A DNA stretch of 63,355 bases from Frankiaceae bacterium (GCA_030840525.1 JAVEEI010000134.1:1-63355), one strand, 5' to 3'. Shown: positions 20,511-51,356, numbered from the stretch's first letter. Numbers and translations: made by a program. The notes: generated from the letters alone by a model not told the origin.

Positions 20511-20526
20511 CGCGCACCGCACCCGA

Positions 20527-29509: not shown

Positions 29510-29523
29510 CGAACGCGAGCCGA

Positions 29524-31479: not shown

Positions 31480-32388
31480 ATGTCTTCCTCAACCGCGCTG
31501 CGCTCTCCACACGGCAAGGGCCGTGCGGTGCACCACCCTGCGGACGTCCTCTCGCTGCCGGCGAGCCTCGACCCGAACGGGCCGCGGGTGAGCGTCGTCA
31601 TCCCGACGAAGAACGAGGCGGAAAACCTGCCGTGGGTCTTCGAGCGGCTGCCAGCGGGGGTCGCCGAGGTCATCGTCGTCGACGCCCAGAGCACCGACGG
31701 CACGGTCGAGCTCGCCCGATCGCTGCGCGAGGACGTCGTCATCGTTCAGCAGACGCGGCGCGGGAAGGGCAACGCGCTTGCCTGCGCGTTCGAGGTCGCG
31801 ACCGGTGACATCCTCGTCATGCTCGACGCCGACGGCTCGGCGCACCCCGCCGAGATCCTGCACTTCGTCCGCGCGCTCGAGGACGGCGCCGACTTCGCGA
31901 AGGGCTCGCGATTCGTCGGCGGCGGCGGCAGCGCCGACATCACCCGGCTGCGCCGGATGGGCAACGCGGCGCTGTCCCGCATGGTCAACGTGCTCTTCGG
32001 CACCCGGTTCACCGATCTTTGCTACGGCTACAACGCCTTCTGGGCGCACTGCCTGCCGTACCTCGAGCTGCCGTCGGTGGCGGGCGATGAGGCGATGCCC
32101 GGTGACGGCTTCGAGATCGAGACGCTGATCAACATCCGGGTCGCGCAGTCGCCGCTCGCGGTGACCGAGGTGGCGAGCTACGAGTCGGAGCGGCTCAACG
32201 GCGTCAGCAACCTCAACGCGTGGCGCGACGGCTGGCGCGTCCTCGGCGTGATCCTCGCCGAGCGCCGCGCCCACCGCCGGGCCCGCCGCGCCGCCGAGCT
32301 GCCGCGCGTGTTCGTCCCGTACCCGACCGAGACGCCGGTCATCGAGAGGGCGAACCGCCGGGTGGCCTTCGCGGAAGACGTCGCGTAA
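31480..32388 (+). CDS. GT2 glycosyltransferase, polyprenyl-phosphate sugar synthase-like (Dpm1/GtrB/AglD type)
   Basis: 302 aa. VSVVIPTKNEAENL and the DxD motif in VMLDADGS. RBS AGGAG lies 8 nt upstream of ATG 31480. Confidence 0.85.
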   Translation: MSSSTALRSPHGKGRAVHHPADVLSLPASLDPNGPRVSVVIPTKNEAENLPWVFERLPAGVAEVIVVDAQSTDGTVELARSLREDVVIVQQTRRGKGNALACAFEVATGDILVMLDADGSAHPAEILHFVRALEDGADFAKGSRFVGGGGSADITRLRRMGNAALSRMVNVLFGTRFTDLCYGYNAFWAHCLPYLELPSVAGDEAMPGDGFEIETLINIRVAQSPLAVTEVASYESERLNGVSNLNAWRDGWRVLGVILAERRAHRRARRAAELPRVFVPYPTETPVIERANRRVAFAEDVA

Positions 32389-32488
32389 GCGACGAACCGA
32401 CCGAGACCCCCCAGCACATGTCCCGCGCAACATCTGAGCGGGCCTCGCTGGTCGCGGCGCCGTGCATCCGAGCCGTCGAGGCCCGAAG

Positions 32489-34357: not shown

Positions 34358-35571
34358 GGGTGCTGCTCGTCAGCGACTTCTTCCCGCCGGTGCGCGGTGG
34401 GCTCGAGGTCCACGTGGACGAGCTCGCGGCGGAGCTGTCCGCGCGCGGCCACGACGTGCACGTCGCGACGCTGACACCGGACGCCACGCCGACCGCCGAC
34501 TCGGTGCAGGTGCACGTGGTCACGACGCTGTCGAGCGCCGTAGTCCGGCACGAGCACGCGGACCGCCCGTTCCACCCGCCGGTGCCGGACCCGCGCGCGC
34601 ACACCGCTCTCGCCACGCTGGTCACGAAGCTCCGGCCCGACGTCGTGCACGCGCACAGCTGGCTCGGCGTCTCGCTGCCGCGGCGGCACCGGCCGCCGGT
34701 CGTGTTCACCGCGCACGACTACGCGCTCATCTGCCAGCTGCACACCCTCCTGCGTACGACGGGGCTGCGTACGACGGGGCTGCGTACGACGGGCGAGCGG
34801 TGCGGCGGGCCCTCGGCGCGCGCGTGCGTGCCGTGCGGGGCGAGGCGGCACGGCGTGGTGCGCTCGGTCGCGCTCGCCACGTCCACGCCGGTCGGCCGCC
34901 GGCTGCTGCCCGCCGACCGGGTGCTGACGCTGAGCGCGCACGTCGCGGCCACGATCCGCCCGTACCTGCGGGTCCCGGTCGAGACCGTCGGCGGCTTCGT
35001 TCGCGCAGTCCGCACCGCCGCGCCGAACGGGAACGTCGAGCTGCCGGCGCTGCCGGCCGGGCCGTTCGTGCTGTACGCCGGCGACCCCGGGCCGCACAAG
35101 GGTCTCGACCTGCTGCTCGACCTCTGGGCCGGGTCGGCGGTGCCGGCGCCGCTCGTCGTCGCGACCACGAAACCATTGGTACGCAACGTTTCCGGCGACG
35201 TCACCGTCGTGACACTGAGCCGCGATCAGATGGCCGTCGCGCAACGTCGCGCGGCCGTCGCCGTCGTGCCGTCGCAGTGGGACGAGCCGTACGGGATGGT
35301 CGCCGCCGAGGCGCTCACGGCCGGCGTGCCGGTCGTCGCCAGCCGGGTCGGTGCGCTGCCGGAGCTGGTGACCGACGGCGTCGACGGCGTGCTCGTGCCG
35401 GCCGGCGACCGCGACGCCCTCGGCGCCGCGCTCACCGGGCTGGTCACCGACGAGCCGCGGCGCGCGGCGTTCGCGGCGGCGGCGGTGCGCGGCGCCGTAC
35501 GGTTCGGCCCGGACGCGGTGCTGCCGCGGATCGAAGCCGCATACCGCGCCGCGATGCAGCGGGCCGCGTGA
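34354..35571 (+). CDS. GT4 glycosyltransferase
   Basis: 405 aa. N-terminal MRVLLVSDFFPPVRGG and E-x7-E (EPYGMVAAE). GTGA overlap with the upstream stop. Confidence 0.87.
   Translation: MRVLLVSDFFPPVRGGLEVHVDELAAELSARGHDVHVATLTPDATPTADSVQVHVVTTLSSAVVRHEHADRPFHPPVPDPRAHTALATLVTKLRPDVVHAHSWLGVSLPRRHRPPVVFTAHDYALICQLHTLLRTTGLRTTGLRTTGERCGGPSARACVPCGARRHGVVRSVALATSTPVGRRLLPADRVLTLSAHVAATIRPYLRVPVETVGGFVRAVRTAAPNGNVELPALPAGPFVLYAGDPGPHKGLDLLLDLWAGSAVPAPLVVATTKPLVRNVSGDVTVVTLSRDQMAVAQRRAAVAVVPSQWDEPYGMVAAEALTAGVPVVASRVGALPELVTDGVDGVLVPAGDRDALGAALTGLVTDEPRRAAFAAAAVRGAVRFGPDAVLPRIEAAYRAAMQRAA
34750..34794 (+). repeat. in-frame 15-bp x3 tandem repeat (LRTTG x3) inside the GT4 gene
   Basis: CTGCGTACGACGGGG occurs three times; the last copy ends in C. 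Confidence 0.9.
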
Positions 35572-36284
35572 GTACGCCGATCGACCGCCGCCGCGCGGTG
35601 AAGCCGATCGACTGCTGGTGGACGGTCGCGGTCGTCGACCCGGTCGCCGTCCGGGTGCTGCCGTGGGTCGCCGGCCGGCGGTCGGTCACGCCCAACCGGA
35701 TCACGGCGGTCGCGTTCGTCGTCGGCTGCGTGAGCGTCGGGTTGTTCGCGACTGGGCATCTCGTCGCCGGCGCGCTGTGTTACGAGCTCCGCTTCTTCCT
35801 CGACTGCCTCGACGGCAAGCTCGCGCGGGTGCGGCAGGTGAGCTCGGCGTTCGGCGCCGCGTTCGACCGGCTCGCCGACAGCATCACGGTGCCGGCGGCC
35901 TACGCGGCGATCGGCTGGACGCTCGCGGAGCACCACGGCTGGTCGCACACGTGGGTGTTCGCGGTCGCGTTGATGGCCGCGATGGTGACGGTCTGCGAGC
36001 TGTCGCTGGAAGCGGCCAAGTCGTCGACCGGCCACGGCGCGGCGACGGCACCCGCACCCGCGTCGGGCGGGGTCGTCGGCTGGATGCGGGCGCACCGGCT
36101 CACCCTGCGGCCGTGGACCGTCGAGGCGGAGACGTTGGGCTTGTTTCTCGGGCCGTTGCTGGTGCGCGGCAGCACGCTCGCGCAGGTGCAGTGGGCGGTG
36201 GCGGCCGTCTACGTCGTCTTCGCCGCGGCCGACGTCATGCTCATGGCGCGGGTGTTCGGGTCGTCGACGAGGTCGAGCTCGTGA
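35568..36284 (+). CDS. CDP-alcohol phosphatidyl/phosphotransferase family membrane protein
   Basis: 238 aa. Perfect D-x2-DG-x2-AR-x8-G-x3-D-x3-D motif (DCLDGKLARVRQVSSAFGAAFDRLAD). GTG 35568 overlaps the GT4 stop. Confidence 0.85.
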   Translation: MSTPIDRRRAVKPIDCWWTVAVVDPVAVRVLPWVAGRRSVTPNRITAVAFVVGCVSVGLFATGHLVAGALCYELRFFLDCLDGKLARVRQVSSAFGAAFDRLADSITVPAAYAAIGWTLAEHHGWSHTWVFAVALMAAMVTVCELSLEAAKSSTGHGAATAPAPASGGVVGWMRAHRLTLRPWTVEAETLGLFLGPLLVRGSTLAQVQWAVAAVYVVFAAADVMLMARVFGSSTRSSS

Positions 36285-37606
36285 GGCGTGCCGTCGTCGC
36301 CGTGCACCGCGCCGCGGCCGACCATGACCGCGACCCAGACGCAGCCGACGAGCTGCGCCACGGCCCAGCACCAGCCGACCGCGTCGATGCCCCACGACCG
36401 CAGGAAGACGGCCGAGCCGCCGACCGCGATTGCCGCGACGACGAAGTTCAGCGTCGCGACCTCGACCAGGCGATGCTGCGCGTTGCGCACGCCGACGTAG
36501 CAGTTGGTCACCGCGTCGGCCAGCGCGCCGACCGCGAAGATGCGCAGCAGCATCGTCCCGTGCGCGGCGTACTCGTGCCCGAACAGCGACAGGATGCGGC
36601 CGGCGAGGACCAGCATCACCGCGGTCAACGGGACCAGGACGAGGGCCATGGTCTTCGCGGCGAGCTTGCTCTGCCGGCGCAGGTCCTCGCGGTGCGAGCC
36701 TTCGGCAAACAGCGCCAGCCCGATCGAGGTCGACACCGTGAACAGGATCCCGGCGATCGACCAGGTGAAGTAGACGTACGCGTTCTGCCGGGTGCCGAGC
36801 AGGCCGATCACCAAGGCCGGGAACAGGAACGGCGGCAGCGAGGCGCCGAGCGATCCGACCTGGTAGCCGAGCATCGTGTGCCGGTGCACGAACAGCCGGC
36901 GCAGGCCGGAGCGGCGTGGCACCGCGAGGTGCATGCCGAGCCGTTCGAGCAGCACGACCGCGAGGATGGCCGACGCGAACAGCGCGGCGTCCCACGTCCA
37001 GAGGATGCTCGCCGCGCCGGGCCGGCGCAGCACCAGGACGGGCCCGACCAGCAGCGCCATCTTCACGACCGCGAACGCCAAATTGCGGCCGAACTGCCCG
37101 CTGCTGCGCCGCAGCGCGACGAAGCACCCGTCGAGCGCGACGCCCGTCGTACTCAGGCCGCAACCGGCGACGAACGCGGCCGCGATCGACGGCTGCCGCA
37201 GCTCGTGGAAGTGCGGCGCCCACGTCGGCAACAGCAGCACCACGAGCACGCCGGCGACGACACTCGCGGCGGTCGTCGTGACCAGCCCGCTGGAGAAGAA
37301 CTGGTCGAGCTCGGACCGGTCGGTGAAGCGCGGCAGCATCCGGACGTACGCCGGCGCCACCCCGAGGCTGAACACGAAACCCACGAGGGTGAACGTGCTG
37401 ATCGCGCCGGCCGCGAACCCGACGCTCGCGCTCGACCAGTGGTGCGCCGCGATCAACCAGTACGCATAACCCAGGGCCGACGTCATCACCGTCGTACCCA
37501 TCAGGAAGCCGCTGTTGCGCAGCAGCGACAGCCGCATCGCCGCGCGCAGCGGGCCGAGCGGCGCCGGCCGGGCACGCCGCTGTCGCGACGATGCTCGCGG
37601 CGACAT
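36209..37606 (-). CDS. second MOP-superfamily flippase (Wzx-like)
   Basis: 465 aa from ATG 37606 (RBS GAGGGAG), multi-TM. The 3' end overlaps the convergent CDP-alcohol transferase gene by 76 nt. Confidence 0.78.
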   Translation of the reverse strand: MSPRASSRQRRARPAPLGPLRAAMRLSLLRNSGFLMGTTVMTSALGYAYWLIAAHHWSSASVGFAAGAISTFTLVGFVFSLGVAPAYVRMLPRFTDRSELDQFFSSGLVTTTAASVVAGVLVVLLLPTWAPHFHELRQPSIAAAFVAGCGLSTTGVALDGCFVALRRSSGQFGRNLAFAVVKMALLVGPVLVLRRPGAASILWTWDAALFASAILAVVLLERLGMHLAVPRRSGLRRLFVHRHTMLGYQVGSLGASLPPFLFPALVIGLLGTRQNAYVYFTWSIAGILFTVSTSIGLALFAEGSHREDLRRQSKLAAKTMALVLVPLTAVMLVLAGRILSLFGHEYAAHGTMLLRIFAVGALADAVTNCYVGVRNAQHRLVEVATLNFVVAAIAVGGSAVFLRSWGIDAVGWCWAVAQLVGCVWVAVMVGRGAVHGDDGTPHELDLVDDPNTRAMSMTSAAAKTT

Positions 37607-37665
37607 GCGGTGCTCCCTCGGGCGGCGTTGGCTGGGCTGGGCTGCGACGGGCTGGGGGGCGGAGC

Positions 37666-38898
37666 ATGAGTACGAACCCGCCAGTTGATACGGCGGTATC
37701 GTCCTCCGTGTCCGTCTTCCCGACAAGAGGGGTTACCGGCGCAGACGGCTCTTCCTTACGCAGCTACTGCGTCGTCGGTTCCGGCTGGGCGTTCACCAGC
37801 GGCCTGAGCTACTACACGTGCCGGCTCGCGCACGCCTTCGCCGAACAGCACCGCACGTCGGTGATCTTGATGCGCCGGCTCATCCCGCGAGTGTTCTACC
37901 CGGGCCGCGACCGCGTCGGCCAGCCGGTCAACAACCTCGACTACGGCGACCACGTCCCGGTCTTCGACGGCATCGACTGGTGGTGGCTGCCGTCGCTGTG
38001 GCGGGCCGCCCGGTTCCTGCGCGCGCAGCGGCCCGACGTGCTCGTCCTGCAGTGGTGGACCGCCGCGGTCGCGCACAGCTACCTCGTGCTCGCCGTCGTC
38101 GCGCGCCGGCTCGGCGCGACCGTCGTCGTCGAGTTCCACGAGACGGCAGACACCGGCGAGAGCCGGCTGCCGCTCGTCGGGCGGTACGTGCGCCTGATCG
38201 GCCGCGCGATCTTCCGCCGGTGCGACGGCATCGTCGTGCACTCCGAGTTCGACCGGGCGGAGGTCGCGGCGCACTACCCGGTCGGCGACCTGCCGGTGCG
38301 GGTCGCGCCGCACGGGCCGTTCGACCATCACGTGGCCGGCGAGCCCGCCGCAAGCACCGAGAGCCGCGAGACCGACGACTTCACCGTGCTGTTCTTCGGC
38401 ACCATCCGGCCGTACAAAGGCCTAGAGCACCTCGTCGAGGCGTTCGACTCCCTCGACGACGACACCGTCGCCGCGATGCGGTTGGTCGTCGTCGGCGAGC
38501 CGTGGGAGGGCTGGACCCGGCCGCTCGAACTCATCGCCGCGAGCCGGCACCGCGACCGGATCACCTTGGTCGACCGGTACGTGCACGACGACGAGGTCGC
38601 GTCGTTCTTCGCGCAGGCGGACGCGGTCGCGCTGCCCTACCTGCGCTCCTCCGCGAGCGGGCCGCTGCACATCGCGATGGCCGCCGGCCTTCCCGTCGTA
38701 CTGACCGACGTCGGCGGGCTGCGCGCCGCCGCCGGCGACTACGAAGGTGTCGTGTGGGTGCCGCCGGCCGACCCCGGCGCGTTGCGTACGGCGCTGTCGC
38801 AGTTGCTGTCGCGACGCGGCGAGCGGTACGCCGACCCGCGGTCCTGGGCCGACACGGTCACGGCGTACGACGAGCTCGCGCGCGAGGCCGGCCGCTGA
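37666..38898 (+). CDS. GT4-like glycosyltransferase
   Basis: 410 aa with GT-B architecture (FFGTIRPYKGLEHLV). No canonical E-x7-E. Confidence 0.8.
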   Translation: MSTNPPVDTAVSSSVSVFPTRGVTGADGSSLRSYCVVGSGWAFTSGLSYYTCRLAHAFAEQHRTSVILMRRLIPRVFYPGRDRVGQPVNNLDYGDHVPVFDGIDWWWLPSLWRAARFLRAQRPDVLVLQWWTAAVAHSYLVLAVVARRLGATVVVEFHETADTGESRLPLVGRYVRLIGRAIFRRCDGIVVHSEFDRAEVAAHYPVGDLPVRVAPHGPFDHHVAGEPAASTESRETDDFTVLFFGTIRPYKGLEHLVEAFDSLDDDTVAAMRLVVVGEPWEGWTRPLELIAASRHRDRITLVDRYVHDDEVASFFAQADAVALPYLRSSASGPLHIAMAAGLPVVLTDVGGLRAAAGDYEGVVWVPPADPGALRTALSQLLSRRGERYADPRSWADTVTAYDELAREAGR

Positions 38899-39971
38899 TG
38901 CGGGTCGCCGTCGTCGCGCCCAACTACGCGCCGGTCGTCGGCGGCGTCGAGACCGTCGTCACGCACGTGGCCCGAGCACTCGTCGAGCGCGGCTGCACCG
39001 TCGAGGTCTGGACGCATCGCCGCGCCGGCCTTCCGGCGTACGAGGTCGACGAGGGTGTCGTCGTGCGGCGGTTCGCGACGACGCGGTCGGCGCGCTACCC
39101 GCTGTCGCCGTCGCTGTGGTCGCACCCGCGGCGGGCGGCGCGCGGGTTCGACGTCGTGCATGCGCACAGCTATCACTCGACCGCGGCGCTCGGCGCGGCG
39201 CTGGCCCGCACGCCGGTGCCGCTCGTCGTCACGCCGCACTACCACGGCGTCGGGCACACCCGCGCGGCCCGGCTGATGCACGTCGGCTACCGGCCGCTCG
39301 GCGCGCGCCTGCTCACTCGCGCCGCCGCCGTCGTCGCGGTGTCGGCAGCCGAGGAAGCCTTGCTACGCAACGACTTTCCGGTGTTGGCGGCGACGACCTG
39401 CGTCGTGCCGAACGGCGCCGACACCGCTGCGATCGCCGCCGCCGAGCCGTGGCCGGGGGCGGCGCCGACCGTGCTCGTCGCGGGCCGGCTCGAGCCGTAC
39501 AAACGGGTCGACCGCGTCGTCGCGGCGTTCGACCGCTGCACCGCTCCCGGGCGCGTCGTCGTCGTCGGCGACGGGCCGGACCGGCAGCGGCTTGAGCGGC
39601 TCGCCTCCGGGGCGCGGCGCGCCCGCGACGTCGCGTTCCTCGGCCGGGTGCCGGACGGCGACCTGGCGCGCTGGCTGCGGACCGCGCGCGCCGTCGTCTC
39701 GCTGTCGGCGCACGAGGCGTTCGGTCTCGTCGCGGCGGAAGGAGTCGCGGCCGGTGCGGTCGCGGTGCTGTCCGACATCCCCGCGCACCGCGAGGTCGCG
39801 GCGATGCTCGGTACGGCGGCGAGAGTGGTCGCGGCCGACGACATCGCGGCGGTGACCGCTGCCATCGACGCGGCGTTGACGACTCCGAACGAAGGCCCGC
39901 GAGCCGTACGGAGTTGGGACGACGTCGCGGCCGACTACCTCGCGCTCTACGAGCGCGTCGTCACCAGGTGA
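38898..39971 (+). CDS. GT4 glycosyltransferase
   Basis: 357 aa. MRVAVVAPNYAPVVGGVE and E-x7-E (EAFGLVAAE). TGATG overlap with the upstream gene. Confidence 0.87.
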   Translation: MRVAVVAPNYAPVVGGVETVVTHVARALVERGCTVEVWTHRRAGLPAYEVDEGVVVRRFATTRSARYPLSPSLWSHPRRAARGFDVVHAHSYHSTAALGAALARTPVPLVVTPHYHGVGHTRAARLMHVGYRPLGARLLTRAAAVVAVSAAEEALLRNDFPVLAATTCVVPNGADTAAIAAAEPWPGAAPTVLVAGRLEPYKRVDRVVAAFDRCTAPGRVVVVGDGPDRQRLERLASGARRARDVAFLGRVPDGDLARWLRTARAVVSLSAHEAFGLVAAEGVAAGAVAVLSDIPAHREVAAMLGTAARVVAADDIAAVTAAIDAALTTPNEGPRAVRSWDDVAADYLALYERVVTR

Positions 39972-41550
39972 TGGCGGTGTCGTCGTAGCAGGCGCGGCCG
40001 GACTCGTACGGCGCCTTCAGGTGCACCTGCACGGTGCTCGCGCCGGCCGGCGCGGTCGCGCTGACGGTGAGCGGCTGCCAGACGTTCGACGCGTCGGCTC
40101 GCGGCGACTCGGCCTGGCCGAGGTACTGGCCGGCGCTGCCGAACCACGCGAGCGCGACCCGCTCCGCACCGGTGGGAACGATCCGGTCGACGTACGTCGT
40201 GACGGTGAACCGCTCGCCCGCGGTGAGCACCGGCAGCTTCTGCATGACCGACGGCACCGCGGTCGCGCGCCCGCCGGTGCCGCTGAAGCACACCGCCTGC
40301 AGGCCGGTGCGGACGATGTCGCCCGCGACCTGGCCGGCGCCGTCCGCGGTGTCGTACGGCGTCCATGCGCCGAGCCGCGCGCCACCGTTGTTGGTCTCGC
40401 GCTCGAACCCGCCGTCGAGGTCGTTGTCGACGGTGCCGGCGAAGCTCTCCCGCACCACGTCGGCGGCCGGCTTCCACGTCCCGTCGAGGCGGCGCAGGCC
40501 GTAGTGGTACTCGTTCGTCCCCGGTGAGTTGGGGATCGCGGCGGCGGCGAAGTCGTTGAGCGTCCACGGCGCCGCGGGCGGCAGGCCGAGCGCCGCCGTC
40601 GTACGTCCGAGCACCCGGTAGAACCGTGCTTGCGCCTCTTCGCCGGCCGCGCCGTCCGGCGTGCTGAGACCGGCTTCGCCGACGATGACCGGCCGGCCGC
40701 CAGCGACGGCTTGCGCCTGCCGCAGCACGTCCGCCGCGCCGGACGCGTCGCCGTAGTAGTGCACGTCCACGACATCGATCGACGACGGCGCGAGATCCGC
40801 GAGCAGCGTGGCGATCCCGTTAGCTCCGGTGCTGCCCGCGACGGTCAGCGTGCGCGGTACACCGGGCAGCACGTCGGCGAGGTAGGGCAGCAAGGTGTTC
40901 GCCCAGCCGACCGCGCTCGCGTTGCCGACCGGCAACTCGTTCTGCAGCTCGACCAGCGCGAGCGTCGGGTTGTCGGCCTGGCCGGCGAGCAGGCTGCGCA
41001 ACCATGCCTCGGACCCGGCGACGTCGGCGTACGAGCTCCACCAGTCGAACAGCGTCAGCTGCACGCTGAGACCGGCCGCGCGCGCCGTCGCGAGCAGGTC
41101 GCGGAAGTTGGCCAGCATCGCGGCGCTGACGGTGGGGTAGCCGACCGCGCTCGGCTGCACGATGACGCGCACGGCGTTACCGCCGAGTGACGCGATCGCC
41201 TGCATGTCGGCCGCAGTCTGCGCGTGCGAGTAGTGCGTCCACATCAACGTCCAGCCGTTGGCGGCCGGGTAGTAGTTGACCAGCCGCAGCTGGCTCACCG
41301 GGACGCGGGCAGCGGTGGTCGCAGTCGCGGTCGTGCTTGAGCGCAGGAACAGCCCGGTGCGCTGGCTGATCGTCGTGCGGCTCGCCGCGAGCGCGTCGGT
41401 CACGCCGACGGTGCCGACGGCGACGATGGCGGCGGCGAGCAGGGCGCGCAGCACGCGTCGCCGTGGCACCACCGTGTCTCCCACGCGCGAAGTTTCGTCC
41501 GGAAGTCGTGCGAACTGAGGCGAATCGGCGCGAAATGGCCAAATGATCAT
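39961..41550 (-). CDS. secreted clan GH-A (GH5-like) glycoside hydrolase with C-terminal CBM4/9-like carbohydrate-binding module
   Basis: Tat-like PRRRVLRALLAAA signal. ELQNELP (acid/base region) and VIVGEAG (nucleophile region). C-terminal NDLDGGFE...W module. The start is uncertain (ATG 41550 or downstream GTGs). Confidence 0.75.
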   Translation of the reverse strand: MIIWPFRADSPQFARLPDETSRVGDTVVPRRRVLRALLAAAIVAVGTVGVTDALAASRTTISQRTGLFLRSSTTATATTAARVPVSQLRLVNYYPAANGWTLMWTHYSHAQTAADMQAIASLGGNAVRVIVQPSAVGYPTVSAAMLANFRDLLATARAAGLSVQLTLFDWWSSYADVAGSEAWLRSLLAGQADNPTLALVELQNELPVGNASAVGWANTLLPYLADVLPGVPRTLTVAGSTGANGIATLLADLAPSSIDVVDVHYYGDASGAADVLRQAQAVAGGRPVIVGEAGLSTPDGAAGEEAQARFYRVLGRTTAALGLPPAAPWTLNDFAAAAIPNSPGTNEYHYGLRRLDGTWKPAADVVRESFAGTVDNDLDGGFERETNNGGARLGAWTPYDTADGAGQVAGDIVRTGLQAVCFSGTGGRATAVPSVMQKLPVLTAGERFTVTTYVDRIVPTGAERVALAWFGSAGQYLGQAESPRADASNVWQPLTVSATAPAGASTVQVHLKAPYESGRACYDDTAITW

Positions 41551-41630
41551 TCCGATGGGCTAGCGGCGGTAGTCACCGCGCGGCGCGGCGACCGATAACC
41601 TCACCGCGTGCGTGTCGGGGCCGGCCTCCG

Positions 41631-42368
41631 GTGATCGGGCTCGTCCTCGCGGCCGGTGCCGGTCGCCGGCTCGCGCCCCTCACCGACGACCTGCCGAAGG
41701 CGCTCGTCCCCGTCCTCGGCGACACGACGTCGATCCTCGACGTCACGGTGGCGCACTTCGCCGCGGCGGGCCTCGATCGCGTCGTCATCGTCACGGGGCA
41801 CGCGGCGGACCGGGTCGCCGCGCGGGTGCCCGCATGGACGTCGGCGTACGCCGGCCTGTCGGTCGAGCTGGTGCACAACGACCACGCGCTCGACTGGAAC
41901 AACGCGTACTCGTTGTGGTGCGCGCGCGAGCACTACCGCGCCGGCGCGTTGCTGTGCAACGGCGACACGTTGCACCCGCTCGGCGTGCAGCGACAGTTGC
42001 TCGACGTGCGCGGCGACAGTGTGTGCCTCGCGGTCGACCGGCACAAGACGCTCGGCGAGGAGGAGATGAAGGTCCAGCTCGACGCCGCCGGCCGGCTACG
42101 GCGGATCAGCAAGCGGCTCGACCCCGCGACGGCGGACGGCGAGTACATCGGCGTGACCTCGATCCCGCCCGGTGCCGCGGCCGCGTTGACCGCGGCGCTG
42201 GAGACGACATGGCGGCGCGACCCGCAGCTCTACTACGAGGACGCGTACCAAGAGCTCGTCGACACCGGCACCGACGTGACGACGGCCGACATCGGCGTCG
42301 TCGAGTGGACCGAGGTCGACGACCACACCGACCTCGCCCGGGCCCGGGAAATCGCATGCCGCTACTGA
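41631..42368 (+). CDS. LicC/IPCT-like nucleotidyl(cytidylyl)transferase (NTP_transf_3)
   Basis: 245 aa. LAAGAGRRLAPLT...PKALV N-terminus, NNAYSLW, and EVDDHTDL near the C-terminus. Confidence 0.82.
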   Translation: MIGLVLAAGAGRRLAPLTDDLPKALVPVLGDTTSILDVTVAHFAAAGLDRVVIVTGHAADRVAARVPAWTSAYAGLSVELVHNDHALDWNNAYSLWCAREHYRAGALLCNGDTLHPLGVQRQLLDVRGDSVCLAVDRHKTLGEEEMKVQLDAAGRLRRISKRLDPATADGEYIGVTSIPPGAAAALTAALETTWRRDPQLYYEDAYQELVDTGTDVTTADIGVVEWTEVDDHTDLARAREIACRY

Positions 42369-43429
42369 CGCGCATGGTCGGCGTGCCGTTGCTCGTCGAC
42401 ATCAGGCCCGGCGCGGTCGACGCACTCGCGCCACTTCTCGCCGACCACCGCATCTCGTCCGGCGGCCGGGTCGCCGTCGCGGTCGGGCCCGGCCAGGGCG
42501 AGGCGATCGCGCAACGGCTGGCCGGCGCGCTGCCGCACGCGCAGGTCGTGCACGTCGACGGCGGCACGCTCGCGGCCGGCCAGGCGCTCGCGACGACACT
42601 GCGCGGCGACTTCTTCGACGCGGTCGTCGGCATCGGCGGCGGCCGGTTGCTCGACACCGTCAAGTGGTCGGCGACCCTCACGGGGCTGCCGATGGTCGCG
42701 GTCGCCACCAACCTCGCGCACGACGGCATCGCCTCGCCGGTCGCGTCGCTGGAAGACGAAGGCCGCAAGGGCTCGTACGGCGTGCAGCTCCCGGTCGCGG
42801 TCGTCGTGGATCTCGACTACGTGCGGCAGTCGCCGGCGCGGATGCGGCGCAGCGGAATCGGCGACGCGGTCAGCAACCTCTCGGCCATCGCCGACTGGGA
42901 GCTGGCGCGTGCGAAGCGCGGCGAGACCGTCGACGGCATCGCCGTCACGCTCGCCCGTACCGCCGCGCTCGCGGTGCTCGACCATCCCGGCACGATCGAC
43001 GACGACGAGTTCCTCGTCGTGCTCGCCGAGGCGCTCGTGCTGTCCGGGCTCGCGATGGCGGTCGCCGGTACCAGCCGCCCGTGCAGCGGTGGCGACCACG
43101 AGATCCTGCACGCGGTCAACCATCTGTACCCGGCGGCCGGCAACCACGGCGAGCTCGCCGGCATCGGCGCGCTGTTCTGCACGTGGCTGCGCGACGACTC
43201 CGGGCTGGCCGCGCGGCTGTCGGCCTGCCTCGCCCGGCACGGCCTGCCGCGCACCCCCGCGGAGGTCGGCCTCACCGACGACGAGTTCGCCGCTGCCGTG
43301 TCATACGCACCGCGCACCCGGCCCGACCGCTACACCGTGCTCGAACATCTCGACCTCGACGACGCGGCGGTGCGCGACCGCGTCGCGTCGTACGTCGCCT
43401 TCTGCGACGTACCCTCGCGAGGTGCATGA
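42356..43429 (+). CDS. sn-glycerol-1-phosphate dehydrogenase-like Fe/Zn-ADH superfamily protein (EgsA/AraM type)
   Basis: 357 aa. GIGGGRLLDTVK, ATNLAHDGIASP, GIGDAVSN..DWELA and TSRPCSGGDHEILH motifs. Overlaps the upstream gene by 13 nt; alternative ATG at 42374. Confidence 0.72.
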   Translation: MPLLTRMVGVPLLVDIRPGAVDALAPLLADHRISSGGRVAVAVGPGQGEAIAQRLAGALPHAQVVHVDGGTLAAGQALATTLRGDFFDAVVGIGGGRLLDTVKWSATLTGLPMVAVATNLAHDGIASPVASLEDEGRKGSYGVQLPVAVVVDLDYVRQSPARMRRSGIGDAVSNLSAIADWELARAKRGETVDGIAVTLARTAALAVLDHPGTIDDDEFLVVLAEALVLSGLAMAVAGTSRPCSGGDHEILHAVNHLYPAAGNHGELAGIGALFCTWLRDDSGLAARLSACLARHGLPRTPAEVGLTDDEFAAAVSYAPRTRPDRYTVLEHLDLDDAAVRDRVASYVAFCDVPSRGA

Positions 43430-43901
43430 GCTGCTGGTGCCGTTCGCCGACTTCATCGGGACGTGGGAAGGCGAAGGGGTCGGTGGCTACCCGACCCTCG
43501 ACGCGGACTTCCCGTTCCGCGAGCGGATCGTGATCGCCGACTACGGCAAGCCGGTTCTGCAGTTCAGCAGCGAGTCGTGGAGCGTCGACGACGGCCGGCC
43601 GCTGGCCCGGCAGTCCGGGTTCTGGCGGCCGACCTCGGCGACCGAGCTCGAGGTCGTGCTCGTCGTCGCGTCCGGGTTCGCCGAGATCCTCTACGGCGGC
43701 CTCGTCAGCGGCCCGGCCGGCGTGCACGTCGAGCTGGCGACCGATGTCGTCGCCCGCACCGTCACCGCGAAGGAAGTCACCGCGGAGAGGCGGATGTACG
43801 CCGTGCGCGCGGGCAAGCTGATGTACGCCGTCGACATGGCCGCCGTCGGGCACGAGCTGGCGCCGCACCTGTCCGCGGCGCTCGACCGGGTCAGCGGCTG
43901 A
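43422..43901 (+). CDS. nitrobindin/FABP-like beta-barrel (DUF1794) protein
   Basis: 159 aa with GTWEGEGVGGYPT and GKPVLQFSSESW motifs. GTG 43422 overlaps the upstream gene by 8 nt. Confidence 0.72.
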   Translation: MHELLVPFADFIGTWEGEGVGGYPTLDADFPFRERIVIADYGKPVLQFSSESWSVDDGRPLARQSGFWRPTSATELEVVLVVASGFAEILYGGLVSGPAGVHVELATDVVARTVTAKEVTAERRMYAVRAGKLMYAVDMAAVGHELAPHLSAALDRVSG

Positions 43902-46866
43902 CGGCCGGTAACTCCGTCGCCAGGTGCCACGACCGGGGGCCGCGCGCGACGTCGAGCGCGTCCGACCACGGTGCCGGCCGGGCCATGTAGAAACCCTGCA
44001 CGAGGTCGGTGCCGAGCGCGCGCAACGCGAGGTACTGCGCGGCGGTCTCGACGCCTTCCGCGACGACCCGAAGGCCGAGGCTGCGGGCAAGTTGCAGGAT
44101 GGTCTGGACGACGGCGAGCGCGTCGTCGTCCTGCGGAATGCCGGCGATGAAACTCTTGTCGATCTTCAGCTCGTCGACCGGGAAGGCGCGTAGGTAGGCG
44201 AGCGACGAGTAGCCGATGCCGAAGTCGTCGATCGCGAGCCGGACGCCGAGCTCGCGCAGCCGGCGGAGCCGGCGCATGTTCGCCTCGGAGTCGTGCATGA
44301 GCACGCTCTCGGTGATCTCGAGGGTGAGCCGTTGCGGTGCGAGACCGGAGACGGCCAGCGCGTCCCGCACGTGCTCGACGATGTTCGGGTCGGCGAGCTG
44401 CCGGCTCGACAGGTTGATGTTGACCCAGCCGCCGCCGCTCCAGCGCGCCATCGCCGTACAGGCCGCGCGCAACACCCACGCACCGATCGGCACGATCAGG
44501 CCGGAGTCCTCGGCCACCGGGATGAACTCGGCCGGGTCGAGCAACCCGAGATCCGGATGCGACCAGCGCAGCAGCGCTTCCATGCCGAGGACGTCGCCGG
44601 TGTCGAGCGCGATGATCGGCTGGTAGTGCAACACGAACTGCTCGCCGTCGAGCGCTTGCTGCAGCGCGGCCGACAGCTCCATCTGGCGCAGCGCGGCGGC
44701 GTACATCGCCGGCTGGAACACCTCGAACCGCCCGCCGCCGGCGGACTTGGCCCGATACATCGCGACGTCCGCGTTGCGCAGCAGGTCGCCCGCGCTGATG
44801 CCGGACGTCGCGACCGCGATGCCGATGCTCGCGGTCACGGTGACCTGCTGGCCGCCGATCACCATCGGTACGGCGAGTGCGTCGAGCAGCCGTGCGGCCT
44901 GCTGCTGCGGTCGCCCGGCCGGGCAGTCGTCGAGGAGTACGGCGAACTCGTCGCCACCGAGACGGGCGACCGTGTCGCCGCCGCGAACCGCGTCCTCCAG
45001 CCGGTGCGCGACCTCGACCAGCATCTCGTCGCCGACCGCGTGGCCGAGCGAGTCGTTGACCAGCTTGAACCGGTCGAGGTCGAGCAGCAGCACGACCGGC
45101 ATGTCCGCGCCGGTACGCCGGCCCAGCGCGTGCTCGACGCGGTCGTTGAACAGCGCCCGGTTGGACAGGCCGGTAAGGCTGTCGTGGAACGCCTGGTGCC
45201 GCAGTTGCGCGTCCAGCGCGTTGCGGTCGGTGACGTCCTTCACCGCGACGAGGACAGCGTCCCGGCCGGCGAACTCCAGCCGGTGGGACGTGACCTCGAC
45301 GTCGATCAACCGGCCGTCGGCGAGCACGTGCCGGGTGGCCAGCCCGTCGGACCGGCCGCCGGTGTCGGCGGCGAGACTGTCGAGCAGCGGCACGACGTCG
45401 GCGTCCGGGCGGAGGTCGACGATTCGCATGCCGAGGAAGCGCTCGCGGCTGTAGCCGTAGTGGCGTACGGCGGCTTCGTTGACCTCGACGAACGTCAGCG
45501 TCGCCTGGTCGTACACCAACATCGGTTGCGGGTTCGCGGCGAACAGCAGCCGGAATCCGGTCTCGCTGTCCGCGAGCGCCTTGCGCGCGCGGACCTGGTC
45601 GGTCACGTCGCGGGCGATGCCGGCGAACGCCGCGATCTCGCCGTTGCCGTCCCGGATAGGCGACAGCGACAGCGAGACGTCGACGAGCGTTCCGTCCTTG
45701 CGCCGGCGTTGGGTGTCGACCGGTGCGAGCCGTTCGCCCCGGCTGGCTCGGCGCATCAACTCGTCGAGCTCGCCGAGACGTTCGGCCGGCACGAGGCGGC
45801 GGATGTCCGCGCCGAGCATCTCCGCGGCCGTGTACCCGTACATCCGCTCGGCGGCGCCGTTCCACGACAGGACAGTGCCGTCGAGGTCCTGGCCGAGGAT
45901 CGCGTCCGACGACGACTCGACGATCGCCGCGAGCTGCCGCCGTACCCGCTCGGCATGGTGGCGTTCGGTGACGTCGGTGTAGTTGACGACGAGACCGTTG
46001 ACGGCCGGTTCGTGCATGAGGTTGCGCACCCGCGCTTCGCACCAGCGCCAACCGCCCTCCGCGTCGCGCACCCGCAGCTCGACGGTGGCGGTCGCGTCGG
46101 GTCGGTCGAGTGCCGCTAACGCTGCCCGCGCGACGCCGAGGTCGTCGGGGTGTACGTAGTCCAGCCCGTCGCGGCCGAGCCGTTCGGTCGGCTCGTAGCC
46201 GAACACGTCGAGGATCGAGGGGCTGTCCCACCGGATGACCGCGCCGGCATCGACGACGGAGATGACGTCGGTGGACTTTTCGACGAGTGCGCGCAGCCGC
46301 CGTTCGCTGTCCCGGACGGCGGCCTCCGTCGCGAGGAGGCGCGAGGCGACGAGCGAGCCGCTCTCCCCGACGAGCAGGCACACCGGCAGTGCGTACGAGA
46401 GGCCACCGGCGAGGGTGCCGAGATCGTGTACGGCGAAGCCGGGCGCGAGGTACGCGATCACCAGCAACGGCGCCGATTTCAGCGACGTCCCGCTCGGGTG
46501 CATCAGTCCGACCCATGCGTAGACGACGAAGAAGAACACGTCGTAGCGAAGCCCGTTGTCGCCGGCGAACAGGTTGTGCACGCTGATCAAGCCGAGGGCC
46601 AGCGGGATCAGCCACAACGAAGAACTGCGCTGCCACCGTTCCCACGGCAGCGTGCCGATCACGATGCCGGCCAGTGCCGCGACCAGGCCGACCGCGACGA
46701 GGCCGAGCCGATGCACGTGCGGCCCCGCCGGGATCAGCGGCGCGAGGCCGGTGACAAGCAACCCGCACAGGCAGAACAGCACGCTGGAGAGCAGGCCGGC
46801 CATCTTCGCCGTACCGAACTCCGGCAGCGCGAAGCGGCCGGGCTCGAGCCGCATCCGCATCGCCAC
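43891..46866 (-). CDS. membrane sensor, PAS x3 - GGDEF - EAL (diguanylate cyclase/phosphodiesterase)
   Basis: 991 aa with an N-terminal multi-TM region. Intact RLGGDEF with an RGGD I-site, and EAL motifs (MEALLRW, DDFGIGYSS). Confidence 0.9.
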   Translation of the reverse strand: MAMRMRLEPGRFALPEFGTAKMAGLLSSVLFCLCGLLVTGLAPLIPAGPHVHRLGLVAVGLVAALAGIVIGTLPWERWQRSSSLWLIPLALGLISVHNLFAGDNGLRYDVFFFVVYAWVGLMHPSGTSLKSAPLLVIAYLAPGFAVHDLGTLAGGLSYALPVCLLVGESGSLVASRLLATEAAVRDSERRLRALVEKSTDVISVVDAGAVIRWDSPSILDVFGYEPTERLGRDGLDYVHPDDLGVARAALAALDRPDATATVELRVRDAEGGWRWCEARVRNLMHEPAVNGLVVNYTDVTERHHAERVRRQLAAIVESSSDAILGQDLDGTVLSWNGAAERMYGYTAAEMLGADIRRLVPAERLGELDELMRRASRGERLAPVDTQRRRKDGTLVDVSLSLSPIRDGNGEIAAFAGIARDVTDQVRARKALADSETGFRLLFAANPQPMLVYDQATLTFVEVNEAAVRHYGYSRERFLGMRIVDLRPDADVVPLLDSLAADTGGRSDGLATRHVLADGRLIDVEVTSHRLEFAGRDAVLVAVKDVTDRNALDAQLRHQAFHDSLTGLSNRALFNDRVEHALGRRTGADMPVVLLLDLDRFKLVNDSLGHAVGDEMLVEVAHRLEDAVRGGDTVARLGGDEFAVLLDDCPAGRPQQQAARLLDALAVPMVIGGQQVTVTASIGIAVATSGISAGDLLRNADVAMYRAKSAGGGRFEVFQPAMYAAALRQMELSAALQQALDGEQFVLHYQPIIALDTGDVLGMEALLRWSHPDLGLLDPAEFIPVAEDSGLIVPIGAWVLRAACTAMARWSGGGWVNINLSSRQLADPNIVEHVRDALAVSGLAPQRLTLEITESVLMHDSEANMRRLRRLRELGVRLAIDDFGIGYSSLAYLRAFPVDELKIDKSFIAGIPQDDDALAVVQTILQLARSLGLRVVAEGVETAAQYLALRALGTDLVQGFYMARPAPWSDALDVARGPRSWHLATELPAVSR

Positions 46867-49142: not shown

Positions 49143-51356
49143 TCAGCCGACGCGCTGCGGCGGCACACCCTCGTCGCCGTAGCTGAACAGCGGTCCCGAG
49201 CGGTCGCTCTCGAGCAGCCGCGAGATGTGCGACGGCGGCTGCGGCGTGGTGAAGAAGTACCCCTGCGCGAGGTCGCAGCCGAGCCGGCGCAGCGCGCGTA
49301 GCTGGTCGAGGTTCTCGACGCCTTCGGCGATGGTCGTCAACCGCAGTGCACGAGCCATGCCGGCGACCGCCGCGACGATCGCCGAGTCGTCGCCGTCGAC
49401 CGCGAGCCCGTCGACGAACGACCGGTCGATCTTCACCGCGTCGACCGGCAACCGCTTGAGGTAGGACAGCGACGAGTAGCCGGTGCCGAAGTCGTCGACC
49501 GCGAGCCGGACGCCGAGCTCGCGCAGCGACGACAGTGCGGTGACCGCGCCCTCGGCGTCTTCGAGCAGCGCGCTCTCGGTGATCTCGAGGCCGAGCTGCG
49601 ACGCCTCGACCCCGTGCCGCCGCAACGACGACGCGACCAGGTCGACGAGGCCCGGGTCGCCGAGCTGCCGGGCGGAGAGGTTGACCCATACGGCGACCGC
49701 GGCGCCGTCGTGGCGCGCGGCGGACCACGCGGCCGCCTGCGCGAGTGCGGTGTCGAGCACCCACTCGCCGATACCGGCGATGAGCCCGGTCTGCTCGGCC
49801 AGCGGGATGAACTCGGCCGGCGGGACGAGGCCGCGCTCGGGGTGGTGCCAGCGCACCAGCGCCTCGACGCCGGTGACGTGCCCGGTACGCAGGTCGACCT
49901 CGGGCTGGTAGACGACCCGGAACTCGTGCTCGGTGAGCGCGCGGTGCAGGTCGTTCGCCGTACGCAGCCGGTGCACGGCGGTCGCGCGGTAGTCCTCGAC
50001 GAACAGCTCGCTGCGCGCGCGGCCGCGGTCTTTCGCCCGGTGCAGGGCTGCGTCGGCGTCGCGCAGCAACGTCTCCGCGGTGGCCAGCGTGCCGCCGGAC
50101 CCCGACAGCGCGATGCCGGCCGACACACTGACGAACACCTCGTCGCCGTCGAGCTGGAACGGCGTCGACATCGTCGAGTTGATGTGGTCGGCGATCGCCA
50201 GTGCGTCCGCCTCGCCGGTGACCCCGGGCACGAGCAGGCAGAAGACGTCGCCGCCGAAGCGGGCGAGCAGGTCGGTCGGCCCGGCGACGCTCTTCAGCCG
50301 GTCGGTGACGAGCCGCAGCATGAGGTCGCCGGACGCGTGCCCGAACGAGTCGTTGACCAGCTTGAAGTGGTCGAGCCCGAGCAGCAGTACGGCGACCTGG
50401 TGCGACTGTTCGAGCGCCGCCTCCATCGACGTGCCGAGTGCGTCGACGAGGACCGCGCGGCCGGGCAGCCCGGTGAGGGCGTCGTACAGGCTGGCCTGCA
50501 CGAGCTGCTCTTCGAACGCGCGCTGCTCGGACAGGTCGCGGGTGATCGAGGAGTAGTAGTCGATCGACCCGTCGGGGCGGCGGTGCGCGACGACGACCTG
50601 CGAGACCGGCACCTCCGAGCCGTCCGGCAGCAGCAGGTCGACCTCGCCGGTCCAGACGCCGACCTTGTTGGCGGTCGGCAGCGCCTCGCCGATGAAGCGG
50701 GCGCGCGACGACGGCGCGTAGACGTCGATCGCTTGCAGCGCAAGCACTTCTTCGTCGGTCGTGACGCCGAAGCGGGCGCGGGCCGCGGCGTTCGCGTAGG
50801 TGAAGGCACCCTTGGTGTCGACCATCGCGACGAGGTCCGGGGTCGCTTCGAGGATCTCGCCGAACCGGCGCAGGTCGGCGATCGCCGTCGTCTCCTCGGT
50901 GACGTCGACCGTCGAGCCGACCCAGCTCGTCACCTCGCCGTCGGCGTCGAGCAGCGGGCGCGCGTCGACGTGCACCCAACGCACCGACCCGTCGTCCATC
51001 CGCCGGATCCGGAACGTGATGTGCACGTCGGTCTTGGCCTCGGCCGCCGCGCGCCACTCGCGCTGGAGCAGCGCCATGTCGGGCTCGTAGACCAGCCACG
51101 CCCGCGCGTCGCCGGGCGCGACGGTCGGGTCGCCGGTGATCTCGGTGAGCTTCGGGTTGACGTAGAGCCGGCGGCCCTCGGTGTCGACGTGGAAGATCCC
51201 GGCCGGCACGGTCTCGGCCATCATCCGCAGCCGCGACTCGCTCTCGGCGAGCATCGCGGTCGTCGCGGCGAGCCGCCTGCGGTCGCGGCGGCTGACGCCG
51301 AGGACGGCGGCGAGCACGATCACGGCAGCGAATGCCACCACGGTGATCGTGATCAT
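49143..51356 (-). CDS. TM - PAS x2 - degenerate GGDEF - EAL protein (probable c-di-GMP phosphodiesterase)
   Basis: 737 aa. The A-site reads RFGGDVF, and the I-site position is GPTD rather than RxxD. EAL motifs are intact (VEALVRW, DDFGTGYSS, EGVE). Confidence 0.9.
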   Translation of the reverse strand: MITITVVAFAAVIVLAAVLGVSRRDRRRLAATTAMLAESESRLRMMAETVPAGIFHVDTEGRRLYVNPKLTEITGDPTVAPGDARAWLVYEPDMALLQREWRAAAEAKTDVHITFRIRRMDDGSVRWVHVDARPLLDADGEVTSWVGSTVDVTEETTAIADLRRFGEILEATPDLVAMVDTKGAFTYANAAARARFGVTTDEEVLALQAIDVYAPSSRARFIGEALPTANKVGVWTGEVDLLLPDGSEVPVSQVVVAHRRPDGSIDYYSSITRDLSEQRAFEEQLVQASLYDALTGLPGRAVLVDALGTSMEAALEQSHQVAVLLLGLDHFKLVNDSFGHASGDLMLRLVTDRLKSVAGPTDLLARFGGDVFCLLVPGVTGEADALAIADHINSTMSTPFQLDGDEVFVSVSAGIALSGSGGTLATAETLLRDADAALHRAKDRGRARSELFVEDYRATAVHRLRTANDLHRALTEHEFRVVYQPEVDLRTGHVTGVEALVRWHHPERGLVPPAEFIPLAEQTGLIAGIGEWVLDTALAQAAAWSAARHDGAAVAVWVNLSARQLGDPGLVDLVASSLRRHGVEASQLGLEITESALLEDAEGAVTALSSLRELGVRLAVDDFGTGYSSLSYLKRLPVDAVKIDRSFVDGLAVDGDDSAIVAAVAGMARALRLTTIAEGVENLDQLRALRRLGCDLAQGYFFTTPQPPSHISRLLESDRSGPLFSYGDEGVPPQRVG

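Follow-up and report, generated by a model that had tools for sequence, protein, structure and literature searches.

A conserved cytidylyltransferase, glycerol-1-phosphate dehydrogenase-like and CDP-alcohol phosphotransferase gene set in actinobacterial glycan loci: a candidate CDP-glycerol pathway

Described alditol-phosphate systems and the proposed pathway

The sn-glycerol-1-phosphate (G1P) dehydrogenases (G1PDHs) EgsA of archaea and AraM of Bacillus subtilis feed ether lipid synthesis via GGGPS and PcrB. Bacterial members of the G1PDH clan are found 'mainly' in Firmicutes and Actinobacteria, and two phylogenetic studies give those of Actinobacteria no function (PMC6431249, PMC5059525). AraM, which feeds PcrB, is the only bacterial G1PDH that has been characterized (PMC6431249, PMC5059525, PMC4244643). 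In the 'lipid divide' debate, the bacterial homologues have been cited repeatedly as an indication that bacteria might have archaeal-type lipids. Here a G1PDH homologue is described from a stretch of 63,355 nucleotides of a Frankiaceae bacterium (GCA_030840525.1 JAVEEI010000134.1:1-63355), referred to below as the window. Three overlapping genes at positions 41631-43901, designated g1, g2 and g3, encode a nucleotidyltransferase, the G1PDH-clan oxidoreductase and a nitrobindin-like protein, respectively, and a cytidine diphosphate (CDP)-alcohol phosphotransferase is encoded upstream at 35568-36284. The g2 protein resembles EgsA and AraM in its Fe-ADH_2/dehydroquinate synthase (DHQS)-like fold, its metal ligands and its SRPxSG/R/R residues. 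In contrast to the known enzymes, the partner of g2 is a cytidylyltransferase and there is no prenyltransferase nearby. AraM (81 bits) is more distant from g2 than are the archaeal G1PDHs.

The interpretation of the locus in which moderate confidence is placed is that g1 and g2 form a two-enzyme supply unit for the modification of an envelope glycopolymer with glycerophosphate. The g2 protein, a metal-dependent NAD(P)H oxidoreductase, would reduce dihydroxyacetone phosphate (DHAP) to G1P, which g1 would combine with cytidine triphosphate (CTP) to form CDP-glycerol with the sn-1-phosphate ('archaeal') enantiomer. At the cytoplasmic face of the membrane, a CDP-alcohol phosphotransferase embedded in it would use this donor to attach glycerophosphate to a hydroxyl group, either of a lipid-linked glycan or of a polymer that is being extended, with release of cytidine monophosphate (CMP). 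This role would fall to the product of 35568-36284 in the window, and most relatives would rely on one or two paralogues that flank the g1-g2 pair. The exported product would be a glycopolymer, located in the envelope or outside the cell, that carries glycerophosphate. Its export would involve Wzx/Wzy-like functions in the window; most relatives would use a Wzm/Wzt-type ATP-binding cassette (ABC) transporter, which often is accompanied by an LCP ligase. The DHAP substrate, the sn-1 stereochemistry, the specificity of g1 for CTP and G1P, the acceptor and the polymer are features that we infer from protein families and gene context.

One likeness of the module is to IPCT/DIPPS and to the CDP-glycerol system of Aquifex and Archaeoglobus, in which the cytidylyltransferase acts on a small polyol phosphate and is combined with a CDP-alcohol phosphotransferase. 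Enzymes of the latter class take a CDP-activated alcohol or lipid as substrate and liberate CMP. IPCT proteins (4JD0, 2XME) are among the relatives of g1, and AF2299 followed by IPCT/DIPPS 4MND are the solved proteins nearest to the phosphotransferase profile. Systems of the IPCT/DIPPS type produce cytoplasmic stress solutes of (hyper)thermophiles and require inositol-1-phosphate, whereas the module in the window has no inositol-phosphate synthase or phosphatase nearby, possesses a dedicated G1PDH-like enzyme and is set in a context of glycan assembly and export.

A second likeness is to the pneumococcal gtp1-3 genes and the transferase WchX, which provide CDP-2-glycerol for capsules (PMC1391919). 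The systems are alike in the presence of a reductase and a LicC-like cytidylyltransferase in a capsule locus of Streptococcus pneumoniae and in the addition of glycerol phosphate to a polysaccharide. The Gtp1-3 route, as set out by Wang in 2010, is said to proceed via free glycerol and a separate phosphotransferase that forms glycerol-2-phosphate. In the module described here, the conserved third partner instead is a CDP-alcohol phosphotransferase and no glycerol-phosphorylating enzyme was conserved in the 83 loci analyzed, a comparison that was made by description only.

The TagD/TarD plus TagF and TarJ/TarI systems also are comparable in that an alditol phosphate that has been nucleotide-activated in the cytoplasm is transferred to a lipid-linked polymer. 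Counterparts of the TagGH-like ABC export and LCP attachment of teichoic systems recur beside the trio of cytidylyltransferase, G1PDH-like and CDP-alcohol phosphotransferase genes. Unlike in TagF systems, the transferases here are integral-membrane proteins of the CDP-OH_P_transf family and sn-1 is predicted as the enantiomer in place of sn-3. Neither TagD-type (CTP_transf_like) nor TagF-type (Glyphos_transf) proteins were found in Pfam scans of the glycan island of the window and of the related loci L001, L002, L007, L060 and L084. The module is plausibly a variant of the nucleotide-activated alditol-phosphate decoration of glycopolymers.

In a 2021 study CDP-1-glycerol was considered 'likely absent' from bacteria, the known glycerol-1-phosphate moieties being derived from phosphatidylglycerol or other donors, and the cytidylyltransferase activity of Archaeoglobus fulgidus that prefers glycerol-1-phosphate was still unidentified (PMC8262930). 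A limited literature check found no description of the trio or of a G1P cytidylyltransferase. This agrees with the first-pass annotation of the window, which knew of no described bacterial pathway with this gene combination, although that annotation did not consider pneumococcal Gtp1-3 and CDP-2-glycerol, which are a described relative in logic. A further proposal, which is put forward tentatively, is that the module would constitute the first bacterial CDP-sn-1-glycerol pathway, and that its CDP-alcohol phosphotransferases would transfer or polymerize glycerophosphate independently of TagF, to produce teichoic-acid-like polymers of archaeal handedness across Actinomycetota. If the sn-1 stereochemistry is true, the view that CDP-1-glycerol is absent from bacteria would change (PMC8262930). 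CDP-alcohol phosphotransferases similarly would join TagF-like and LtaS-like proteins as builders of glycerophosphate polymers, the handedness of which would affect susceptibility to stereospecific glycerophosphodiesterases and recognition by phage and immune receptors. The actinobacterial G1PDH clade then would be explained by glycopolymers and not by archaeal-type lipids.

Gene structure, coupling and families of g1 and g2

What is observed directly is the structure of the genes, their family placement and the conservation of catalytic residues and of the neighborhood. The window has a G+C content of ~72% and genes were called from codon-position GC, with coding regions marked by GC at the third codon position; this signal was present in the frames of all three genes. 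Gene g1 (41631-42368, plus strand) has a GTG start and encodes 245 amino acids that include VLAAGAGRRL and DWNNAYSLW. Gene g2 (42356-43429, plus strand) has an ATG start and its 357-residue product includes ATNLAHDGIASP, GIGDAVSNLSAIADW and TSRPCSGGDHEILH, whereas g3 (43422-43901, plus strand) starts with GTG and specifies 159 amino acids including IGTWEGEGVGGYPT. The overlaps of 13 nucleotides between g1 and g2 (42356-42368) and 8 nucleotides between g2 and g3 (43422-43429) were as first annotated, and the motifs quoted at that stage all are present. The N-termini of g1 and g2 agree with the consensus starts of their homologues, MIGxVLAAGAGRRL and MPLLxRMVG, respectively. A scan of 41300-44200 for promoters and terminators produced nothing useful.

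The module is far more widespread than the single window suggests. Searches with g2 returned 4836 matches at E <= 1e-10, of which the top 120 all were 64-99% identical, and a g2 relative is present in at least 564 species-representative genomes. Neighborhoods were compared in 83 loci consisting of the window and 82 fetched loci (numbered with the prefix L), in which genes were called by codon-position GC and their products were clustered. In 82 of the 83 loci the gene immediately preceding the g2 homologue is a homologue of g1, and the sole exception ends at a contig edge. The overlapping arrangement of g1 and g2 thus is not due to chance. The pair spans Solirubrobacterales, Frankiales, Micromonospora, Streptosporangiaceae, Nocardioidaceae and Nitriliruptorales. 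Such tight and near-universal coupling argues that the product of the reductase is the substrate of the cytidylyltransferase.

The g1 protein matches the Pfam families NTP_transf_3 and NTP_transferase. When a profile of the g1 family was compared with the PDB, the best solved relatives were LicC (1JYK, 71 bits), the Thermotoga maritima protein 4JD0 (70 bits, full length) and PntC (6PD1, 69 bits); the score for A. fulgidus IPCT (2XME) was 42 bits. Enzymes for sugar-1-phosphates scored no higher than 39 bits and were aligned in the N-terminal nucleotide-binding region alone. The profile similarities and the AAGxGxRL-type N-terminal motif VLAAGAGRRL indicate that g1 belongs to the LicC/IPCT/PntC-type group of cytidylyltransferases for phospho-alcohols and phosphonates, in keeping with its original designation as LicC/IPCT-like, and is not an enzyme for hexose-1-phosphates. 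It is neither of the TagD type (HxGH) nor of the IspD/TarI type. The best NCBIfam score was 54 bits and none of the equivalog cut-offs, which are >=290 bits, was reached. The protein is proposed to be a CTP:glycerol-1-phosphate cytidylyltransferase, with CTP and G1P as the predicted substrates.

The assignment of g2 to the EgsA/AraM group, and not to GldA or DHQS, was made at the outset from motifs and is borne out by profile scores, PDB matches, fold searches, tree placement and conserved residues. The protein matched Pfam Fe-ADH_2 with 99 bits and the NCBIfam G1PDH model NF002022 with 222.3 bits, compared to 49 bits for GldA and 17 bits for DHQS. In the PDB, the Methanocaldococcus jannaschii G1PDH (148 bits), the Clostridium acetobutylicum protein 3CE9 (142 bits) and the Pyrobaculum calidifontis G1PDH (137 bits) were the strongest matches, with weaker scores for B. 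subtilis AraM (81 bits) and for GldA proteins (~40 bits). An AlphaFold model of g2 (pLDDT 88.9) was most similar in Foldseek searches to 3CE9, 4RGQ and 5FB3 with TM scores of 0.77-0.87; entry 4RGQ is the complex of M. jannaschii G1PDH with DHAP. The Pfam match, model and fold search agree on a two-domain Fe-ADH_2/DHQS-like fold. In a neighbor-joining tree with Escherichia coli GldA and AroB as outgroups (168 columns, no bootstraps and few labelled anchors), g2 and its relatives formed their own clade inside the G1PDH clan, which a long branch divides from GldA and AroB. Thus, clustering of g2 with GldA or DHQS was observed neither in the profile scores nor in the tree.

The predicted metal ligands of g2, D170, H248 and H264, are conserved in the M. 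jannaschii, P. calidifontis and AraM proteins, as are D123, S127, H252 and E266. Moreover, g2 shares with these three proteins the clan-specific residues S240-R241-P242-x-S244-G245, R322 and R325 that are near-universal in the clan and absent from E. coli GldA. At positions where all three validated G1PDHs agree, g2 differs mostly conservatively, with P117A, S121A, Y192V and S193D as the exceptions. The residues Y192 and S193, which are V and D in g2, were considered as a discriminator and were rejected as the pair varies throughout the clan, including in sequences that group with the archaeal enzymes. Taken together, the sequence comparisons indicate that g2 is a member of the G1PDH (EgsA/AraM) clan that is far removed from GldA and DHQS, and the reaction proposed for it is the conversion of DHAP to G1P, with DHAP as likely substrate and sn-1 as predicted stereochemistry.

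The structural-genomics entry 3CE9 from C. acetobutylicum is named a 'glycerol dehydrogenase' and is a member of the G1PDH clan. It departs from the clan at positions that are otherwise conserved, with S in place of R241, K in place of R322 and I in place of E266, and its substrate may be different, perhaps unphosphorylated.

The CDP-alcohol phosphotransferase, its neighborhood and the acceptor

The gene at 35568-36284 (plus strand) encodes a membrane protein of 238 amino acids that matched Pfam CDP-OH_P_transf with 57 bits (cut-off 22) and that contains the complete motif D(x)2DG(x)2AR(x)8G(x)3D(x)3D as DCLDGKLARVRQVSSAFGAAFDRLAD. A crude hydropathy scan revealed hydrophobic segments, as expected for a polytopic membrane protein of PF01066. 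The best NCBIfam scores, 48 bits for phosphatidylinositol phosphate (PIP) synthase and 46 bits for archaetidylinositol phosphate (AIP) synthase, missed every cut-off, and no CDP-alcohol phosphotransferase of the window or its relatives attained one. The IPCT/DIPPS equivalog NF041135, which has a cut-off of 580 bits, gave 36-41 bits with proteins of the window and at most 60 bits with those of relatives. A profile that represents mainly a short downstream paralogue from related loci matched A. fulgidus AF2299 best (82 bits) among PDB entries, followed by IPCT/DIPPS 4MND (55 bits) and PIP synthase (53 bits), with eukaryotic CPT1/CEPT1 at 35-37 bits. Thus, the family and perfect motif that the first-pass annotation had recognized in this protein both stand, whereas its description as DIPPS-like is a loose one given that no NCBIfam cut-off was reached and that the solved protein nearest to the profile is AF2299. 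The product of 35568-36284 is proposed to be a CDP-glycerol:acceptor glycerophosphotransferase.

Association of the phosphotransferase with the pair is a general feature. Profile searches placed a CDP-alcohol phosphotransferase within seven genes of the G1PDH-like gene in 75 of the 83 loci; the gene is immediately downstream (+1) of the dehydrogenase in 65 loci and at position -2 or -3 in 49. Several of the eight loci that are without a member are short or truncated contigs or have few flanking genes. The grouping of the trio first suggested for the window therefore extends to many actinobacterial loci outside this genome and to glycopolymer contexts. Clusters found within seven genes on either side included GT4 (58/83) and GT2 (47/83) glycosyltransferases, ABC ATPases (55/83) and ABC permeases (54/83). 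The canonical order is GT4, a long CDP-alcohol phosphotransferase (~570-620 amino acids), DUF5941, cytidylyltransferase, G1PDH-like protein, a short CDP-alcohol phosphotransferase, GT2, Wzm-like permease and ABC ATPase. Other recurrent neighbors are glycerophosphodiester phosphodiesterase, LCP ligases, Wzy_C, sulfotransferases and sulfatase/LtaS-fold proteins, and flippases also are common. The glycosyltransferases, exporters, LCP ligases and glycerophosphodiesterases around the trio suggest that the acceptor is an envelope glycopolymer. The occurrence of the trio in hundreds of species, mostly in neighborhoods for glycan assembly, provides the actinobacterial G1PDH homologues with a concrete candidate function that is unrelated to membrane lipids.

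Variants of the arrangement were noted. In Micromonospora the module is compact; the phosphotransferase gene is located downstream and a phosphoglycosyl transferase is encoded close by. Locus L084, a contig of 44.6% G+C that is unlikely to be actinobacterial, encodes a g2 homologue of 37% identity within the same trio (5267-7823), together with a Wzx flippase, PMT-like transferases, a second CDP-alcohol phosphotransferase and an APS kinase. The long paralogues, such as those at 6962-9285 in L007 and 4739-7285 in L001, usually are followed by a membrane protein of family DUF5941, on which no literature was found (DUF5941/PF19365). An hhalign comparison (probability 64%, E 6.6e-5) revealed remote similarity of the N-terminal domain of the long paralogue to the g1 family, and this domain appears to be a degenerate nucleotidyltransferase-like one, in a layout like that of IPCT/DIPPS. 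The protein of the window is nearest to this 'upstream/long' paralogue (~36% identity) and is without the N-terminal domain and DUF5941.

A number of observations weigh against the proposed pathway. The g2 score falls below the equivalog cut-off of NF002022 (222 versus 413 bits), such that the protein is a clan member uncertified as an equivalog, and it is only ~28% identical to validated G1PDHs. Its substrate could have shifted either to unphosphorylated dihydroxyacetone, as for pneumococcal Gtp1, or to another keto-phosphate, and the phosphate-binding role of R241, R322 and R325 is our own inference. Distant g2 homologues (32-44% identity) are found in unrelated contexts. The phosphotransferase gene of the window is a single paralogue located 5.3 kb from the g1-g2 pair and non-adjacent to it, and Pfam scans detected no initiating phosphoglycosyl transferase in the island. 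A small molecule or a lipid furthermore could serve as the acceptor, since the CDP-alcohol phosphotransferases resemble enzymes for soluble phosphodiesters and phospholipid head groups. Four alternatives are considered below, each of which is weaker than glycopolymer decoration from CDP-glycerol on grounds of either context or residues.

If g2 converted dihydroxyacetone to glycerol, a separate phosphotransferase formed glycerol-2-phosphate from it and g1 produced CDP-2-glycerol for a side group, the locus would operate as do pneumococcal Gtp1-3. The subthreshold G1PDH score of g2 would fit with this route, as would the common logic of a reductase and a LicC-like cytidylyltransferase in a capsule or exopolysaccharide locus. 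The route nevertheless is improbable as the pair is not accompanied by a conserved kinase or phosphotransferase gene in the 83 loci and a HAD-fusion protein encoded in the window has no homologue in related loci. More generally, no kinase or phosphatase recurs among the neighbors of the trio in these loci, which favors a dehydrogenase that delivers a phosphorylated alcohol directly. The retention in g2 of R241, R322 and R325, which GldA does not have, likewise is as expected for a phosphorylated substrate.

The same low score and limited identity would be compatible with reduction of a different keto-sugar phosphate by g2 and formation of the matching CDP-alditol by g1, comparable to the synthesis of CDP-ribitol by TarJ/TarI, and the combination of dehydrogenase and cytidylyltransferase is generic in its logic. 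However, g2 preserves all of the metal ligands and the clan-specific motifs, its changes are mostly conservative and the sole pair that appears divergent (192-193) is variable clan-wide. As genes for glycerophosphodiesterases also recur beside the trio, this alternative is judged to be very unlikely and the least probable of the four.

The affinities of the phosphotransferases, whose nearest relatives are AF2299, IPCT/DIPPS and the PIP/AIP synthases, raise the question of whether the product is a soluble phosphodiester, namely a solute similar to diglycerol-phosphate or glycerophosphoinositol. Here CDP-glycerol would react with glycerol phosphate or inositol-1-phosphate and the product would be dephosphorylated, as for the stress solutes of Archaeoglobus and Aquifex. 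The likeness of g1 to IPCT and the two-domain, IPCT/DIPPS-like layout of the long paralogue are consistent with such a product, and a passage of the 2021 study that cites Rodrigues 2017 describes glycerophosphoinositol from CDP-glycerol for Aquifex and Archaeoglobus (PMC8262930). In most loci, however, the trio is embedded in clusters of glycosyltransferase, exporter and LCP genes, and two transferase paralogues, glycosyltransferases and an ABC exporter would be needless for a cytoplasmic solute. The carriers are soil mesophiles and neither a phosphatase nor an inositol-1-phosphate synthase is conserved nearby; Pfam scans of the island and of L001, L002, L007 and L060 detected no inositol-1-phosphate synthase. 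A solute product accordingly is regarded as rather improbable.

Most characterized members of CDP-OH_P_transf make lipids, and a Kennedy-type transfer of glycerophosphate to diacylglycerol or a glycolipid would generate either phosphatidylglycerol or an anchor of the glycerophospho-glycolipid kind. Phosphatidylglycerol has a sn-glycerol-1-phosphate moiety as its head group (PMC8262930) and eukaryotic CPT1/CEPT1 are among the profile matches (35-37 bits). The g2 homologue of the Streptomyces-like locus L085 adjoins a PlsC-type acyltransferase. Genes for glycan assembly and export, not for lipid synthesis, nonetheless dominate the neighborhoods, and neither GGGPS/PcrB nor a UbiA-type prenyltransferase was found in the window island or in L001 and L002. 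Although a lipid product in place of a glycopolymer thus is unlikely, a lipid anchor and glycan decoration are not mutually exclusive. In L085 (6001-10754; SsgA nearby), the genes that follow the G1PDH homologue, which is 44% identical to g2, encode the PlsC-type acyltransferase, a HAD hydrolase and a sulfatase/LtaS-fold protein, and the locus may represent a different bacterial use of glycerol-1-phosphate, possibly in an acylated lipid.

The nitrobindin gene and the surrounding island

The g3 protein has the same domain as nitrobindin/peroxynitrite isomerase, the THAP4 heme-binding β-barrel, and matched Pfam THAP4_heme-bd over its whole length with 147 bits. The score against the NCBIfam model for peroxynitrite isomerase (128 bits) is below the cut-off of 225, and no link of nitrobindin to the module is conserved. 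Besides the window, the gene occurs in a 99%-identical strain (L092). No homologue was found by tblastn (E <= 1) in the fetched loci other than L092/L093, and g3 is missing from the syntenic, 82%-identical relative L002. As nitrobindin does not show conserved co-occurrence with the g1-g2 pair, it was rejected as a member of the pathway and g3 is treated as a lineage-specific passenger that probably is translationally coupled or co-transcribed here and lies outside the proposed mechanism. Thus, the family originally assigned to g3 is upheld, whereas its membership of the operon is confined to this lineage.

The genes that surround the phosphotransferase gene were delineated from Pfam scans, codon-position GC calls and the hydropathy profile. 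The left part of the island (25974-35571) comprises genes for a HAD-fusion protein (25974-27986, minus strand), a Wzx-type flippase (27983-29509, minus), a GDSL esterase/acyltransferase (29524-30297, minus), a methyltransferase (30294-31163, minus), a GT2 enzyme (31528-32388, plus), a 622-amino acid protein with ~12 transmembrane segments (32489-34357, plus) and a GT4 enzyme (34354-35571, plus). The right part (36209-41550), between the phosphotransferase gene and the operon, encodes a MatE/MOP-type flippase-like protein (36209-37537, minus), two GT4 enzymes (37708-38898 and 38898-39971, both plus) and a GH5 glycoside hydrolase (39961-41454/41550, minus) that is divergent from g1. The island therefore holds two flippase-type genes, four glycosyltransferase genes and one GH5 gene. 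This content, with the GDSL and methyltransferase genes and the ~12-segment membrane protein, is indicative of a Wzx/Wzy-type heteropolysaccharide locus. The window and L002 share the order GT4, CDP-alcohol phosphotransferase, MatE-like flippase, GT4, GT4, a gene in the position of GH5, cytidylyltransferase and G1PDH-like gene, and the order in the right island is identical in L002/L003 and L092.

The 622-amino acid protein has no Pfam or NCBIfam match and occupies the position expected of a Wzy polymerase or PMT-like transferase. The HAD-fusion protein consists of 670 amino acids, with an N-terminal HAD phosphatase-like domain and an unmatched C-terminal part of ~450 amino acids. Its candidacy as a Gtp3-like partner found no support since a homologue is absent from every related locus. 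The phosphotransferase gene and the convergent gene for the MatE-like flippase overlap at their 3' ends by 76 nucleotides (36209-36284), which is unusually long for convergent genes.

Genes for the supply of 3'-phosphoadenosine-5'-phosphosulfate (PAPS) adjoin the island at 17475-22648. The set comprises genes for CysD-like (17475-18383), CysN-like GTPase (18472-19734) and CysQ/inositol-monophosphatase-like (19731-20510) proteins and an adenosine-5'-phosphosulfate (APS)-kinase fusion (21527-22648, minus strand). Sulfotransferases and APS kinase also are encoded beside the trio in L001, L007 and L084. The glycopolymer may be sulfated in view of both the PAPS-supply genes that flank the island and the sulfotransferase and APS kinase genes of relatives. 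Three GGDEF-EAL proteins, two of which have PAS domains, are encoded around the island at 43891-46866 (minus strand), 49143-51356 (minus) and 57724-60264 (plus), and the first of these genes is convergent with g3 with an overlap of 11 nucleotides. The presence of GGDEF-EAL genes on the flanks of the island suggests that the exopolysaccharide may be under cyclic di-GMP control.

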